From Candidatus Harrisonbacteria bacterium (GTDB lineage Bacteria; Patescibacteriota; Minisyncoccia; UBA6257; 1-14-0-10-40-38), in assembly GCA_023245035.1 (NCBI GenBank), contig JAHFLD010000003.1, positions 55,736 to 119,735 on the forward strand: a DNA stretch of 64,000 bases, in the 5' to 3' direction. How positions within the stretch are numbered: the stretch's first letter is position 1; each line of letters opens with the position of its first letter. Made by a program: the position numbers and the translations under genes. Positions 3,784 through 48,399 of this stretch are shown here, in pieces. A model generated the notes under the pieces. It searched no databases and had not been told where the DNA came from. It saw only the letters and a program-made list of their open reading frames with translations.

Positions 3784-4236
3784 TGTCAGATGTTTGACGG
3801 GCATAGATTTACCATAGCACGTGGCTGGTTTGAGTAGAAAATATTTTTTACTCACAAGCGAGATCTTTGATTGATCTTCTATATATGAAGTTGAATGTGG
3901 TGGATAGATCCGGTCTGTGGGTCATCATTTTTGCGATAAAAAAAAGGGCGCAACGGGGAGCGTTGCGCCAAATACGGGTGAGGATATTAAGTTGTGTGGC
4001 AGGTCTAGGACATGCCGCTTTCCGGTTGTGGCCGGATTTGCCGATCTATTCTGCTTTCGATGAGCTGTTTCTATTTTAACGCCTTCAAGTTTTCCGTCAA
4101 TGCGAGTTATCCACATAGATCATAAAATGATATATCTGGCGAATGGTATACTGGTCAGATGTAAGCGCGTGCAGAAGGGCTTGCACCAAAGGTCGAAGGG
4201 AGTGAATGTTAGTAATTATTTAGTCTATAAAAAAAT

Positions 4237-6863: not shown

Positions 6864-6876
6864 TGGTTGTGCTTCG

Positions 6877-6976
6877 CACACTATCAACGAATAGCGAATA
6901 AAAAACCGAATGTACGAATGGATTAAATCCTCATTCGTAAATTCGCAATAGATTCGTAATTCGCTGATGAGCGTGC
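6877..6976 (+). repeat. 100-nt hairpin insertion copy 1 in 23S (helix 9/10 region), IVS-like
   Basis: Identical over 100 nt to the copies at 7475 and 8109. Internally four CGAAT units followed by four ATTCG units, giving a long imperfect hairpin. Flanked by a short copy-specific inverted repeat. Confidence 0.8.
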
Positions 6977-7236
6977 GGAGCGTAGCTGGGGGTTGTAAGG
7001 TAGAGACTTCTTGCTCATCGCCCAGTTCTTGAATAGTCGAGGACTTGGCGATCCGCAGGAAAAGAGTAAAAAATTCGCTAGTTAGCCGAGGCCGTTGGAA
7101 AGCGGCGCCAGAGCGGGTGATAGCCCCGTAGGCGAAAACATGCGAACTCTTGTTTCTATTCTTGAGTACCTCGAGGCAAACAAACCTTGAGGGAATCCGG
7201 GAGTACTATCTCCTAAGGCTGAATATACTTTGTGAT

Positions 7237-7267
<31 letters not shown>

Positions 7268-7474
7268 AAAAAGAACCCCGGAAGGGGAGTGAAATAGAAC
7301 CTGAAACCATATGCTTACAAGGAAGTGGAGCCCAATCTCGTAGCAATACGAGCCGGGTGACGCTGTGCCTATTGAAGAATGAGCCAACGACTTATTCTGT
7401 ACTGCTCATCTAAGCCATCTCTGATGGTGAAGGTAAAGCGAAAGCGAGTCTTAATAGGGCGATGTCGTGCTTCG

Positions 7475-7574
7475 CACACTATCAACGAATAGCGAATAAA
7501 AAACCGAATGTACGAATGGATTAAATCCTCATTCGTAAATTCGCAATAGATTCGTAATTCGCTGATGAGCGTGC
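7475..7574 (+). repeat. 100-nt hairpin insertion copy 2 in 23S at the helix-25 position (E. coli about 540-550), a classical IVS site
   Basis: Inserted between ...TCTTAATAGGGCGATGTC and AAGCAGTACGGGATAGACCCGAAGCC, corresponding to E. coli ...TCTTAACTGGGCG / GGGTATAGACCCGAAACC. Confidence 0.8.
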
Positions 7575-8108
7575 GGGGCACGCACAAGCAGTACGGGATA
7601 GACCCGAAGCCAGACGAGCTTACCCTGGGCAGGATGAAGTCCCGAGAAATCGGGATGGAGGTCCGAACTGGTGGGTTGTGCAAAACCCTCGGATGACCTG
7701 GGGTAGGGAGTGAAAAGCTAATCGAGTTTGGTAATAGCTGGTTCTCTCCGAAATAGTTTTAGGACTAGCGCTTCGTAAAAAGTCGTGAGGGGTAGAGCTA
7801 CTGGTTCGGGGGTATAGGGCGAAAGCTCGACCTTCGAGTCAAACTCCGAATACTCACGATTACGCGAAGTAGTCAGTACGTGGGGGCCAAGCTCCATGTA
7901 CGCAAGGGGAACAGCCCAGATCGCAGTCTAAGGTCCCTAAATTCTTACTAAGTGTTAAAGGTAGTCATCACCCATAGACAGATAGGAGGTTGGCTTAGAG
8001 GTAGCCATCCTTTAAAGAGTGTGTAACAACTCACTATTCGACGGTTGGTGGCGCCAAAAATGTACCGGGGCTAAGTAAGATACCGAAGACGCGGGTGTGT
8101 GTGCGTAG

Positions 8109-8208
8109 CACACTATCAACGAATAGCGAATAAAAAACCGAATGTACGAATGGATTAAATCCTCATTCGTAAATTCGGAATAGATTCGTAATTCGCTGAT
8201 GAGCGTGC
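8109..8208 (+). repeat. 100-nt hairpin insertion copy 3 in 23S at the helix-45 position (E. coli about 1170), a classical IVS site
   Basis: Inserted between ACCGAAGACGCGGG and GGTAGGAGAGC, corresponding to E. coli CACCGAAGCTGCGG ... GGGTAGGGGAGCG. One substitution relative to copies 1 and 2. Confidence 0.8.
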
Positions 8209-8968
8209 TACGCGTACACGCGGTAGGAGAGCATTTCTAGTGCGCTGAAGCGTGAGCCGCGAGGCCGCGTGGAGCGCTAGGAAGAGAGAATGTTGGTATG
8301 AGTAACCACATTTCCTATGAGAAATAGGAACCCCGAAAATCCAAGGTTTCCGTGGCAATGACAATCAACCACGGGTTAGGCGATCCTAAGGCGATGGTGA
8401 AAACCGCAGCTGACGGGAAGCCGGTTAATATTCCGGCCCATGCATATTTGTGCGATGGAGTGACGGAGGAAAAAAGATTGAGCGCCTTAATGGTTTGGCG
8501 TCGGGCGTGTTAAGGGACGTACCCCTGGAAAATCCGGAGTACTGTGTTTAATCACGAGTTCCGCGCACGTACGTAAGGTGAAGTTTTTACTTCGCTAATT
8601 CAATCGAAGAGCCTTCCGAGAAAAACTTCTAAGTTTAGAATATGGATTTCGTACCGTAAACCGACACAGGTGGATAGGGCGAGTAGCCCAAGGGGAACGA
8701 GTGATTCTTCGTTAAGGAACTCGGCAAAAAAGCGGCCGTAAGTTAGCGATAAGGCCTGCCCTTCGCAAGAAGGGCCGCAGCGAAAGTATCTCTGGCGACT
8801 GTTTACCAAAAACACAGCTCCCTGCTAACTCGCAAGAGGATGTATAGGGGGTGACGCCTGACCGATGCGAGAAGGTCAACGGTGGCTGTGCCAGGTAGTT
8901 TACTCTGTCTGGTGCGGACTGCCCGAAGCCCTCGTCAATGTCAGCGATAACTATAATCGTTCTAAGGT

Positions 8969-9828: not shown

Positions 9829-10143
9829 TGATGTGCTAATTACACGCCATAGAAGCGTGAATTTATTGGCGCATGAGCGGTTTGAGTCCAGATCCACACA
9901 TCGATTATTGTTTTAGTCTTTTCGTTTCTGAAAAAGTATAGTCATCAATCAAATCACGGCGGTCTTAAGAAGTAATTTTTAAGAACCCAGTTAACTTATT
10001 TCGGTGAAACCCAATGTGGGCAATACCGAGGGAATTCTTTGCGAAGCAAAGATGCCCGTAGAGACTACACGTTAACCCCCTAAATCGCGTAAGCGATCGG
10101 GTGAAGATATAGTCCAATGCACGCAGTAATGCGTGGAAACATG
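9829..10143 (+). other. ORF-less group-I-like intron in 23S near E. coli position 2593
   Basis: Removing 9829-10143 restores GGGTTCAAACCGT|CGTGAGACAGG, matching E. coli GGGTTTAGAACGTCGTGAGACAG. The insert ends in G after a U-ending exon and contains GGGTGAAGATATAGTCC plus GCAGTAATGCGTG. Confidence 0.7.
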
Positions 10144-45927: not shown

Positions 45928-46689
45928 ATGGACAAAAAAAACTTTAGCGAGGGAGTGGGTCAGTTTCTAGTTCGGGTTTTGCTGGTAGTTTTAATTGTGG
46001 TTGGGTTCAATCTCTTTTATTTTTTGAAGAGTCGGGCGGTAGCGGTGGTGCCGGCGCGGAGTATTGTGGTTTCGGCCGAGGGCAAGGCGGTAGTTTCGCC
46101 GGATATAGCCAAAATTTCTTTTTCGGCGGTGACGGAGGGCAAGGATCCGGCGGTTTTGCAGAAAGAGAATACCAAGAAGATGAACGATGCCATAGCGTAT
46201 TTGAAATCTCGGGGCATTGAAGCCAAAGACATAAAAACATCGCAGTATAATCTTTCGCCGAGATATGATTATCGCGCTTCGGATGGTGGTCGGCCGGTTT
46301 TGTCGGGCTATGTGCTGACCCAATCCGTTTTGGTTAAGGTTCGTAAATTAGAGCAGGCGGGGGAGGTGTTGGCAGGTCTTACGCCTTTGGGCATAAATGA
46401 GATTAACAGTCTTCAGTTTGACATTGATGATCCGGAGATTTTTATTCAGGAGGCCAGAGCGCAGGCGTTTGCCAAGGCTCGCGCCAAAGCCAAAGAGATG
46501 GCGCGGGAAAACGGCGTGCGTTTGGGCAAGGTGATAACCTTCACCGAGTCGCAGGGCGGGTATCCGCGACCTTATTATGACTTGAAGGCGGGAGCGATCT
46601 CGCAGGAGAGTCTGCCGCCGGTGCCGACACTTGAGGCCGGAACACAGGAGGTGACGGTGCAGGTGAGCGCGACCTACGAGTTACGGTAA
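45928..46689 (+). CDS. SIMPL-domain (DUF541) periplasmic protein
   Basis: Signal-anchor plus the characteristic SIMPL architecture (S.EG.A......A.ISF.V........A...N......I...L...GI....I.T....L.P.Y). ATG at 45928. Confidence 0.75.
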   Translation: MDKKNFSEGVGQFLVRVLLVVLIVVGFNLFYFLKSRAVAVVPARSIVVSAEGKAVVSPDIAKISFSAVTEGKDPAVLQKENTKKMNDAIAYLKSRGIEAKDIKTSQYNLSPRYDYRASDGGRPVLSGYVLTQSVLVKVRKLEQAGEVLAGLTPLGINEINSLQFDIDDPEIFIQEARAQAFAKARAKAKEMARENGVRLGKVITFTESQGGYPRPYYDLKAGAISQESLPPVPTLEAGTQEVTVQVSATYELR

Positions 46690-46772
46690 AAACTTTCCGT
46701 TTATACAAGTCATCTACTTTGTTGCTCGCTCCGCTTCTCCTGCGCTGTAGCGACAATGCTACAGCTTAGTCG

Positions 46773-46995
46773 CTGCTCGTTCGCGCCGCGTAGCTGAGCT
46801 TGCATAAACGGAAAGGAAACTTATTTATCTTTCGGTCGTGTGCTCGCGAGTGCCTTGCATCTCATCTTTTTTAGGAAGAAAATGAAACATAACTACCTTT
46901 TGATTCTGTGTACGTTCTTTTTCGCTCGCGCCGCGTAGCTGAGCTCGTATAAACGGAAAGGAAACTTATTTATCTTTCGGTCGTGTGCTCGCGAC
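46773..46995 (+). repeat. Two direct copies of a 72-nt element separated by about 75 nt in a 760-bp non-coding region
   Basis: Copy A (about 46774-46850) and copy B (about 46923-46995) share CGCGCCGCGTAGCTGAGCT(T/C)G(C/T)ATAAACGGAAAGGAAACTTATTTATCTTTCGGTCGTGTGCTCGCGA. An inverted partial (CTTTCCGTTTATAC, 46694-46707) and a perfect hairpin (GCTGTAGC-GACAAT-GCTACAGC, 46744-46765) lie upstream. Confidence 0.8.
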
Positions 46996-47451
46996 CTTTT
47001 TCCTATCTCTTATCTCGTACTTCATGTTTCTTTCCCAAAGCTTCTTGACTTTATAAGTCCACCTGTGCTAGGGTCTTTAGGAATGGGTGTTGGTATTCCC
47101 CGACGATGATATCGATGGAGGAATGCTTGATTTACCGATCTATTTGTGGCATTGGCCCCGCGCAAGCGGGGCTTTTGCTTTTTTGGCATATCCAACTTGT
47201 CTTTTCGTGATTTTTTTCGGCGAGGCTACCGCGCGTATTCGTCTTCTTTTCCAATTCCGCAAAAAATCCAGCGTTTTTAAAAAAACTTCTTACTTCTCCA
47301 CTGTGAACGATTTGCGCTTAGACCAGAGCTAATCTAAAATTATTGCAGTGTGCGCTTCGTTAGGCTTTCTTGAGGACTGCTAGGACGCGCACTCATTCAT
47401 TACAAATAGAATTGGAGGTCACCCCTAACAGTCCTCAAGGTAGCGTAGCGT

Positions 47452-48399
47452 TTGGCGAGTATTAATTTTATGTTTGAAGAACATGTTCCTTTGGCGCGTT
47501 ATAGTTATTATAAGATCGGCGGCCCGGCCCGCTATTTTTATCGTCCGAGCACGATAGAGCAACTGACCGAGGGGGTGGAAACTGCCGGTCGGATGGGTTT
47601 GCCGATTTTTGTTTTGGCTGGAGCCACCAATCTTTTGATTCATGACCAGGGTTTTGCCGGGCTGGTTCTAAAGCCGGAGTTATTGGGTATTACCCGTGTG
47701 GGCTATGCGCTTGAGGTCGGCGCCGGAGTGCCAATGCACGATGTTCTGGAATTTGCCGCGGAGCACGGTCTTGCCGGACTGGAATGGGCCGGTGGTTTGC
47801 CGGGAACTTTGGGCGGCGCGATTCGTGGCAATGCCGGCGCTTTTCGTGGCGAGATAAAAGATGCGGTGGCGACGGTGACGAGTGTCGCGACTAATGAGCC
47901 ATATGTTAACTTGCGGACCAGAACCGCTTCCGAGTGCGAGTTCGGTTACCGAACCAGCGTTTTCAAAGGGGCGGCGCGCAAGGAGATTATTATCGGCGCG
48001 ACTTTGGTTTTGCGTCCGGGGGATCCGGCTTTGATTCGCGAGCAAATGAAGGAAAAAATAACCTATCGCGCTCTGCGACATCCGCTAGAGTATCCGAATA
48101 TCGGAAGTATTTTTAAAAATGTTGACTGGCGGGCGGTGCCGTTGGAGCATCAGGAGTTGCTCCGGCCGCATCTTAAAACCGATCCTTTTCCGGTGGTGCC
48201 GGTGGCGTATTTGATTTCGCAGACCGGTTTGCGTGGTGTGGCGAACGGGGGAGTGATGATCTCGCCAAAACATCCTAATTTTATTGTGAATGTTTTAAAT
48301 GGTCGCGCCGCCGAAGTTCGCGGTCTGATTCAGTTGGTAAAGGAATCGGTAGGTGAAAAATTCGGAATTCAACTTGAAGAGGAGGTTGTGTCGGTTTAG
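47452..48399 (+). CDS. murB: UDP-N-acetylenolpyruvoylglucosamine reductase
   Basis: FAD-binding YKIGGPA...FVLAGATNLL and the MurB C-terminal domain. 315 aa. Confidence 0.85.
   Translation: MASINFMFEEHVPLARYSYYKIGGPARYFYRPSTIEQLTEGVETAGRMGLPIFVLAGATNLLIHDQGFAGLVLKPELLGITRVGYALEVGAGVPMHDVLEFAAEHGLAGLEWAGGLPGTLGGAIRGNAGAFRGEIKDAVATVTSVATNEPYVNLRTRTASECEFGYRTSVFKGAARKEIIIGATLVLRPGDPALIREQMKEKITYRALRHPLEYPNIGSIFKNVDWRAVPLEHQELLRPHLKTDPFPVVPVAYLISQTGLRGVANGGVMISPKHPNFIVNVLNGRAAEVRGLIQLVKESVGEKFGIQLEEEVVSV

Follow-up and report, generated by a model that had tools for sequence, protein, structure and literature searches.

We analyzed the 760-nt interval at 46690-47450 of a 64,000-nt stretch of DNA (hereafter the window) from contig JAHFLD010000003.1 of a Candidatus Harrisonbacteria bacterium, a member of the Patescibacteria (Parcubacteria/Paceibacteria). 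The interval separates a SIMPL-domain gene (45928-46689; PF04402) from murB (ATG at 47470; PF01565 and PF02873), with hpf and secA further downstream of murB, and the nearest MurB sequences come from Liptonbacteria, Harrisonbacteria, Paceibacterota and similar metagenome-assembled genomes. An earlier description, made from the letters alone (the sequence-only reading), had noted two direct repeats in this interval and had proposed that they either encode a structured small RNA (sRNA) twice in tandem or represent a promoter/operator unit that was duplicated. Our analysis indicates that the interval is a composite of two unrelated things: a left part (46690-47044), which contains the repeat, and a right part (47045-47452), which contains two putative sRNA genes, here termed A and B. 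We consider it probable that this anatomy, a non-conserved recent repeat beside two conserved RNAs that pair with each other, is correct. The small-RNA proposal thus holds to the extent that the interval is non-coding and has sRNA genes, but the repeated 73-nt units are not those sRNAs.

Covariation analysis with homologous intergenic regions, which had been named as a check, supported A and B, and nothing in those regions could be aligned to the repeat units. The closest relative found anywhere is locus L002 (identical to L203), whose MurB and SIMPL proteins are 87% and 84% identical to those of the window. It aligns over the 3' end of the SIMPL gene (86%), 47045-47186 (96%) and 47347-47500 (94%), so that the A and B blocks are held more tightly than coding DNA. 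Nothing in L002/L203 is alignable to 46690-47044 or to the non-conserved A-B spacer at 47187-47346, so that the spacers turn over completely at this distance. The sequence-only reading had held that a lack of transcription and of conservation in relatives would make the region degenerate debris. The conservation half of that statement applies to the repeat part only (absent from the closest relative, about 200 related loci and all collections searched); the right-hand 400 nt, where the two conserved RNA genes had gone unnoticed, is not debris.

Candidate sRNA A occupies approximately 47081-47186 on the + strand (about 105 nt) and has a conserved promoter, a hairpin and an intrinsic terminator. 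Its promoter (47045-47074) consists of a -35 element, TTGACT (47045-47050), an 18-nt spacer ending in TGC and a -10 element, TAGGGT (47069-47074), which would place the start site at about 47081. The predicted RNA begins with a patch that we call a1 (GAAUGGGUGU, 47081-47090), continues with hairpin 1 (about 47092-47127; conserved tip ACGAUGAUAUCGA) and a second patch, a2 (UCUAUUUGUGG, 47139-47149; extended to 47128-47149 in this lineage), and closes with an intrinsic terminator, whose G+C-rich hairpin (47154-47173) leads into a run of U residues. Its fold is more stable than those of shuffled sequences (z = -3.75), and 20 of 22 pairs are changed on both sides among homologues. We detected 124 homologues of A. 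In the 28 that were aligned, T1, A2 and T6 of the -10 element are invariant, the element is mostly TATAAT or TATACT with TTGAC ahead of it (TTGAC...TGnTATAAT as the pattern of the relatives), and all 28 have the G+C-rich terminator hairpin with its U run. A is present in the window as a single copy (nhmmer E = 1e-20, a self-inclusive value since the window sequence is in the profile alignment). We also observed a 13-nt insertion, GCUUGAUUUACCG, in the A gene of this lineage (47128-47149; L002 3633-3654).

In public annotations of the source contig and of one Logan contig, an 81-aa open reading frame (ORF) is placed at 47087-47332, over sRNA A and its terminator. This ORF has no Pfam match, the closest relative shows no conservation past the terminator of A, and the frame crosses the covarying RNA structure. 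It is therefore probably a spurious annotation, and the earlier statement that the interval contains no credible ORF still stands.

Candidate sRNA B, at approximately 47347-47452 on the + strand (about 100 nt), ends 20 nt before the ATG of murB. It is predicted to form a stem of about 25 bp (arms 47358-47384 and 47424-47450) that carries a nearly invariant apical loop of about 36 nt (47385-47423), reading G.GCACUCAUUCAaCACAAAUAGAAUUGGAGGUCACC. The loop holds two patches, b1 (GCACUCAUUC, 47389-47398) and b2 (UUACAAAUAGA, 47400-47410), and ends with the invariant GGAGGUCACC (47414-47423). The fold z-score relative to shuffles is -4.26, and 17 of 22 stem pairs are changed on both sides. B also occurs once in the window, and its motif was found in at least 181 loci. 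A promoter-like site (TTGCGC at 47312-47317, 17 nt, TAAAAT at 47335-47340; + strand) lies upstream, and such sites (at least 9 of 12 matches) precede B in 35% of relatives as against 8% of shuffled sequences, an enrichment of about 4-fold. We considered a coding reading of B, with a Shine-Dalgarno (SD) sequence and AUG or UUG, and rejected it since no conserved ORF follows. An AUG, UUG or GUG does stand about 6-7 nt after GGAGGUCACCAC in approximately 40% of B homologues, including an AUG-UGA 'start-stop' in L043 and L017; this start-like codon may simply be the closing base pairs of the stem.

In six of 58 genome loci, B lies on the opposite strand and has its own clear TATAAT box. The inverted copies (L004, L022, L028, L034, L043 and L066) sit at the same place upstream of murB, at about 3800-3950 in each locus, and in two of them, L034 and L028, the A and B genes run toward each other into a shared terminator. 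The inverted loci with their own promoter indicate that A and B are separate genes. Since B consists of a long inverted repeat, its loop could be turned around in situ by recombination of the two arms. We also observed partial B-like fragments after the full B in L119 (GGGAGAGGTCACCACTTGCAGC, about 60-110 nt downstream) and L136 (GAGCACTCACC..., about 70-130 nt), which suggests occasional local duplication of B halves. The conserved segments at 47045-47186 and 47347-47452 are two different RNAs and not tandem copies of one.

The two RNAs are complementary to each other: a1 is complementary to b1, and a2 to b2, so that two helices of about 10 bp each could form on adjacent patches of the B loop. 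In the window, the duplex energies are -14.6 kcal/mol for a1 and the loop and -19.6 kcal/mol for a2 and the loop. We compared same-genome and different-genome pairings across 108 distinct combinations of A and B, taken from genomes and metagenomes, with statistics that ignore kinship. The a2:b2 energy was -9.64 kcal/mol within genomes and -5.41 kcal/mol between genomes (permutation p <= 2e-4), and a contiguous a2:b2 helix of at least 8 bp was found in 83% of same-genome pairs versus 24% of mixed pairs. The a1:b1 energies differed less (-12.77 versus -11.95 kcal/mol; permutation p <= 2e-4). When a1 and b1 are placed in a fixed register, each of the 10 positions is paired in 84-100% of cases; at one position A-U switches to G-C (17 and 8 versus 3 discordant). 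Dozens of distinct complementary a2/b2 haplotype pairs occur, for example CAAUUUGUG/CACAAAUUG, UCUGUUUG/CAAACAGA, GUUAUGUUUG/CAAACAUAAC and UCUUCUGUG/CACAGAAGA. Judged by these comparisons, A and B keep their complementarity by compensatory change. The marks of a base-pairing sRNA, namely a promoter of its own, a Rho-independent terminator and complementarity maintained through compensatory change, were all found for A. A search for further complements of a1 or a2 in the window, with G-U pairing accepted, yielded matches by the hundred and was uninformative.

We scanned metagenomes with the B-loop pattern, independently of murB, and obtained at least 120 loci. Among the 120 listed, A is present in 77, mostly 40-200 nt upstream of B on the same strand, and murB is present in 75, directly downstream of B and on the same strand in 73. 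B was found in essentially every Parcubacteria locus examined, and the MurB loci from outside the Patescibacteria were without it. This distribution introduces the question of whether B is instead a cis-acting 5' leader of the murB(-hpf) mRNA, that is, an attenuator or translational operator, with A as an ordinary trans-acting sRNA that regulates it. In about 94% of loci, B and murB share a strand and B lies directly upstream, at 20-200 nt from the start codon, and the window has no room for a separate murB promoter between the end of B (47452) and the ATG (47470). In addition, several B homologues have a U run after the stem, and the 3' strand of the lower stem is often GG-rich and could be the ribosome-binding site of murB. 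However, B is inverted in the six genome loci described above and in two of the 75 listed metagenome loci that have murB, and in loci without murB the gene that follows B is hpf, secA or rplC, up to about 460 nt away. The invariant part of B is, moreover, the loop and not the murB-proximal part. The inverted and murB-less loci weaken the leader interpretation, which we regard as rather unlikely, and we favor two separate RNA genes.

If A and B are two RNAs that meet in the cell, a refolding of the B loop can be envisaged. The RNAalifold consensus joins GC-CUC, an invariant part of b1, to another invariant element of the B loop, GAGGU. Free B would accordingly hold the invariant CACUC of b1 paired with the invariant GGAGG(U), and the GAGUG of A would compete for this CACUC, so that binding of A would re-fold the loop, leave UUGGAGGUCACC single-stranded and expose the SD-like GGAGGUCACC. 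This shared use of CACUC would explain why the b1 half, its partner in A and GGAGG are frozen, whereas b2 and a2 have only each other and can drift and compensate. In most other lineages the A-B pairing ends just before GGAGG. In the lineage of the window the GCUUGAUUUACCG insertion extends the predicted pairing across GGAGGUCA (21 bp with bulges, -19.6 kcal/mol), which would be covered instead. The re-folding would change the effect of B on its partner, which might be the 30S subunit, a protein or a murB-hpf message starting behind B. As a modeled step on its own, the opening of the internal CACUC:GGAGG pairing by A is doubtful. We infer the transcription of A and B, and any effect on murB or hpf, from sequence comparison.

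The left part of the interval, by comparison, holds the direct repeat, of which copy 1 lies at 46777-46849 and copy 2 at 46922-46994. Each copy is 73 nt, and the two are 96% identical (70 of 73 positions, three mismatches), separated by a unique 72-nt spacer (46850-46921), with a start-to-start distance of 145 nt. The repeat pair was correctly recognized in the sequence-only reading, with ends 1-4 nt off, as were an inverted partial copy, which lies at 46693-46709, and a perfect 8-bp hairpin (GCTGTAGC/GCTACAGC, 46744-46751 and 46758-46765). The copy-to-copy blastn E-value of 6e-30, and three sub-patterns of 18-32 nt that occur twice each in the window against 0.00-0.03 expected from shuffles, exclude chance. 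The 72-nt spacer has no significant similarity to its flanks, direct or inverted, and Tandem Repeats Finder (TRF) reports no tandem array at the repeat. The two 145-nt periods show no relation in their second halves, so that the head-to-tail agreement along a whole unit that defines a tandem duplication was not observed. A 14-17-nt motif, CTTTCCGTTTATAC, is present in three copies, one of them inverted. Copy 2 alone ends in a terminator-like hairpin (GGTCGTGTGCTCGCGACC plus TTTTT, 46979-47001); however, three terminator-like sites were seen against 2.0 +/- 1.6 expected, which is not significant.

The outer arms, of which the inverted copy is one, and the 8-bp tip turned out to belong to one long hairpin, unnoticed in the sequence-only reading. 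This imperfect palindrome spans 123 nt (46693-46815), starts 4 nt past the SIMPL stop codon and has 17-nt outer arms at 46693-46709 and 46799-46815. Its minimum free energy is -49.2 kcal/mol on the + strand and -56.1 kcal/mol on the - strand (z = -4.75 and -5.3), and none of 200 shuffles folded as well. Copy 1 consequently starts inside the 3' arm of the palindrome. The arm at 46693-46709 is 94% complementary to both 46799-46815 and 46944-46960, with a 14/14 match to 46947-46960. The left arm, CTTTCCGTTTATACAAG, is the perfect complement of the inferred ancestral unit, and relative to it each copy carries one private T>C change. Therefore, the duplication postdates the palindrome and is recent, and the copies are drifting. 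The two T>C changes (in 46799-46815 and 46944-46960, as compared with 46693-46709) give an A-C mismatch in the + strand RNA and a G-U wobble in the - strand RNA, a pattern that agrees with the more stable fold of the - strand; two events are too few for significance.

We also examined how far the repeat extends among relatives. Homologues of the SIMPL gene with close similarity are limited to an identical strain and the L002/L203 lineage, the next relative being 61% identical, and no one-copy intermediate was found among them. The palindrome is also absent from L002/L203. Searches by nhmmer with the repeat unit and with the 355-nt region gave only noise, in 81 and then in about 200 related loci. 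The exact core of the repeat had no match in genome, metagenome or viral contigs, and the 355-nt region had no blastn match in phages or plasmids. Further copies of the unit, for which a genome-wide search had been suggested, were sought in the 64-kb window, the related loci and the public collections, and no third copy was found. In our reading, a 73-nt piece, comprising the right palindrome arm and 34 nt beyond it, was copied once and recently to a site 145 nt downstream, within a fast-evolving spacer or 3' untranslated region behind the SIMPL gene. We conclude that the repeat is a young, local and lineage-specific duplication with no evidence of function. At most, the repeat or palindrome aids the termination or stability of the SIMPL transcript.

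Other explanations of the repeat were weighed against this conclusion. As the data are metagenomic and short-read graphs break at this site, the duplicated segment might be an assembly artefact, either a collapsed or expanded repeat or two merged strain alleles. In a second assembly, Logan contig L082 (SRR14366769) stops at 46833, 30 nt into a 46-nt exact block shared by the copies, and Logan contig L001 begins at 46965, from where 30 nt of the block remain in copy 2. Where a repeat is genuine, a k = 31 graph is expected to break k-1 into the shared block on both sides, as it does here. The copies also differ at three positions, so that both sequences are present in the data, and four contigs of 50-200 kb show identical gene spacing; an artefact is accordingly extremely improbable. 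If the repeat is real, its units could be functional in this lineage, as a tandem structured sRNA or as a promoter, operator or terminator module for SIMPL or sRNA A. The 96% identity of the copies beside an unrelated spacer could mean selective retention, copy 2 has its terminator-like hairpin with a T run, and the three CTTTCCGTTTATAC copies could be protein-binding sites. However, single units fold no better than shuffles on either strand (z = +0.34, -1.02, +0.73 and -0.55), so that a stable conserved fold per unit was not found. The promoter scan detected no sigma-70-like promoter in the units, and the number of terminator-like sites is not above expectation. The substitutions sit in the palindrome arm and weaken the + strand hairpin. 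In a separate comparison, complementarity of A or of the B loop to the repeat region was no better than in shuffles (z >= 0). Folding, the promoter scan and absence from relatives all speak against the original idea of tandem sRNAs or duplicated promoter/operator units, and a function of the units in this lineage seems very unlikely.

It could also be supposed that the palindrome and repeat are remnants of a mobile palindromic element, of the kind of miniature inverted-repeat transposable elements (MITEs) or repetitive extragenic palindromes (REPs), or of an integrated element with 73-nt attachment sites whose interior is mostly deleted. The 123-nt unit is bounded by 17-nt inverted repeats and accompanied by an extra solo arm, and three 116-nt copies of another short repeat family in the large-subunit (LSU) rRNA gene of the window indicate that this genome tolerates small repeated insertions. 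On the other hand, no dispersed copies bounded by terminal inverted repeats were found within the 64 kb or in any collection, phages and plasmids included. The repeated unit starts 22 nt inside the inverted repeat and runs 34 nt beyond it, and is thus not bounded by it; there is no integrase or transposase gene nearby and no tRNA-like sequence in the copies. We consider such a remnant quite improbable. The last candidate is a locus resembling a type I toxin-antitoxin system, for which the tandemly repeated Ibs/Sib and Ldr/Rdl loci of Escherichia coli are the model. Here an 18-codon hydrophobic ORF, MKHNYLLILCTFFFARAA (46882-46938), which ends inside copy 2 and shares its frame with a longer ORF at 46840-46938, would encode a small membrane toxin, and the repeats would give an antisense or regulatory RNA. 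The SD-like AGGAAG about 6 nt upstream, the hydrophobic core and the setting of intergenic direct repeats fit this scheme, and the composition of MKHNYLLILCTFFFARAA resembles that of a type I toxin, without comparative support. However, the repeat takes in only about the last 5 codons of MKHNYLLILCTFFFARAA, and in copy 1 this frame meets a stop 7 codons upstream, so that this ORF is not the repeated unit. The region is unique with no known homologue, five small ORFs including MKHNYLLILCTFFFARAA and the 81-aa ORF had no Pfam match, and no promoter-like site was found on either strand. A conserved hydrophobic ORF in each unit together with an antisense gene, as in true type I systems, was not found, and this explanation is highly improbable.

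The repeat also differs from the known classes of intergenic repeats. REP/BIME, MITE, E. coli SIB/LDR, CRISPR and TIGR loci resemble it as intergenic direct repeats, here with a palindrome, but the present locus has two 73-nt copies with no further copies or associated genes found. In CRISPR loci the repeats measure 23-50 nt and cas genes are close by. TIGR arrays, a guide-RNA system associated with the Candidate Phyla Radiation (CPR), are built of 36-nt units that carry box C/D motifs, have variable spacers that are split, and stand beside a Tas gene (PMC12045711). A CRISPR or TIGR array was rejected because there are only two 73-nt copies, TRF detects no array and the neighbors are the SIMPL gene and murB. 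In itself the repeat matters little, as a duplication that is young, confined to this lineage and located in a spacer with fast turnover. As for the 116-nt family, its three copies (6866-6981, 7464-7579 and 8098-8213) are 93-98% identical, contain CUGAUGAG and small internal hairpins, and share no sequence relationship with the 73-nt repeat. They lie in the LSU rRNA gene, which spans 3868 nt, compared with 2925 nt for the model, and which contains a group I intron recognized by Rfam (9936-10136) as well. The 116-nt elements may be a family of small rRNA insertions.

Several points weigh against the composite reading as a whole. The permutation and Fisher tests for A-B pairing ignore phylogeny, although many distinct compensated states exist. 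RNAcofold predicts no complex of A and B, the tool being incapable of placing pairs inside a closed hairpin loop, and in our model the two helices (a1:b1 and a2:b2) have a permuted-order topology whose steric feasibility is assumed. Both sides of the CACUC:GGAGG pairing are invariant, so that covariation cannot test it. The promoter hexamers of A and B are weak in the window, where the promoter scan detects none. As regards the repeat, a simple tandem duplication would not be expected to leave a clean 73-nt copy next to a 72-nt spacer of unrelated sequence. Its absence from a relative at 87% protein identity indicates no constraint at that distance and would be compatible with a very young lineage-specific function. 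Finally, the search for further copies within this genome covers only these 64 kb.

We searched for known RNA families that might correspond to A or B. Rfam 15 at the gathering score gave nothing for A, B or the repeat in the whole window and 16 related loci, and at E <= 10 (window, L079 and L053) it gave only scattered, inconsistent sub-threshold matches to miRNA precursors and terminator-like sRNA ends. ARAGORN identified six tRNAs elsewhere in the window and no transfer-messenger RNA (tmRNA), and none of these in 46690-47450. In the literature on sRNAs of Parcubacteria, Patescibacteria and CPR, and with motif strings, no description of A or B was found. Signal recognition particle (SRP) RNA, 6S RNA, RNase P RNA, two-piece tmRNA, box C/D and K-turn RNAs were rejected as identities of A or B, as their defining motifs are lacking by eye. 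We tentatively suggest, as one possibility, that A and B jointly form a device of two RNAs that has so far not been described and is shared by the class Parcubacteria/Paceibacteria, either a two-piece housekeeping RNA or a loop-refolding riboregulatory switch that shows or hides GGAGGUCACC. In both cases the device would couple cell-wall synthesis (murB) and ribosome hibernation (hpf) to some signal. Given their fixed place before murB, hpf and secA, A and B may be linked to the growth of the envelope or to the hibernation of ribosomes. If this speculation is true, the device would be among the first conserved riboregulators defined in CPR. A and B are conserved in a large class of ultra-small uncultivated bacteria in which gene regulation is barely known, and their covariation is unusually direct sequence-only evidence for an RNA-RNA interaction that also supplies ready natural compensatory mutants.

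Comparison with known systems places A and B between several classes. As a long hairpin of about 100 nt with a conserved apex and an hpf/secA neighborhood, B resembles 4.5S/SRP RNA, 6S RNA and the raiA-motif RNA, the last of which is found upstream of raiA/hpf in Firmicutes and Actinobacteria. It differs in having, in a loop read by eye, neither the GNRA tetraloop nor the symmetric-loop motifs of SRP RNA, in lacking the central bubble flanked by two stems of 6S RNA, and in being much smaller than the raiA motif. Sponge or decoy pairs, such as SroC-GcvB, RosA-RoxS/FsrA and RsaI-RsaG, likewise consist of two non-coding RNAs that are each other's main detectable partner. The sponges known so far mostly derive from mRNAs or tRNA spacers as by-products and show narrow conservation, whereas A and B have dedicated adjacent genes and co-evolve across a whole class of Patescibacteria. 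In DsrA/RprA-rpoS, GlmZ-glmS and RNAIII-hla, a trans-encoded sRNA opens an inhibitory structure in the leader of its target (anti-antisense activation). The mechanism proposed here is similar in that a short terminator-bearing RNA would use its 5' end to free an SD-like GGAGG by pairing with CACUC, and in that the pairing is short (about 10 bp) and imperfect and links separate genes. Unlike the targets of the DsrA/RprA-rpoS class, B has no start codon at a fixed distance from GGAGG and is a stand-alone hairpin with its own promoter in many genomes. It can also be inverted relative to murB, the two patches are in permuted order, and the genes are always neighbors. With CopA-CopT, hok/Sok and RNA I-RNA II, finally, A and B would share the pairing of a linear RNA segment into a closed hairpin loop, and two helices of no more than one turn avoid the topological threading problem. 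Those pairs are cis-encoded by overlapping genes with perfect complementarity on plasmids, whereas A and B appear to be trans-encoded chromosomal genes whose complementarity is kept by compensatory change.

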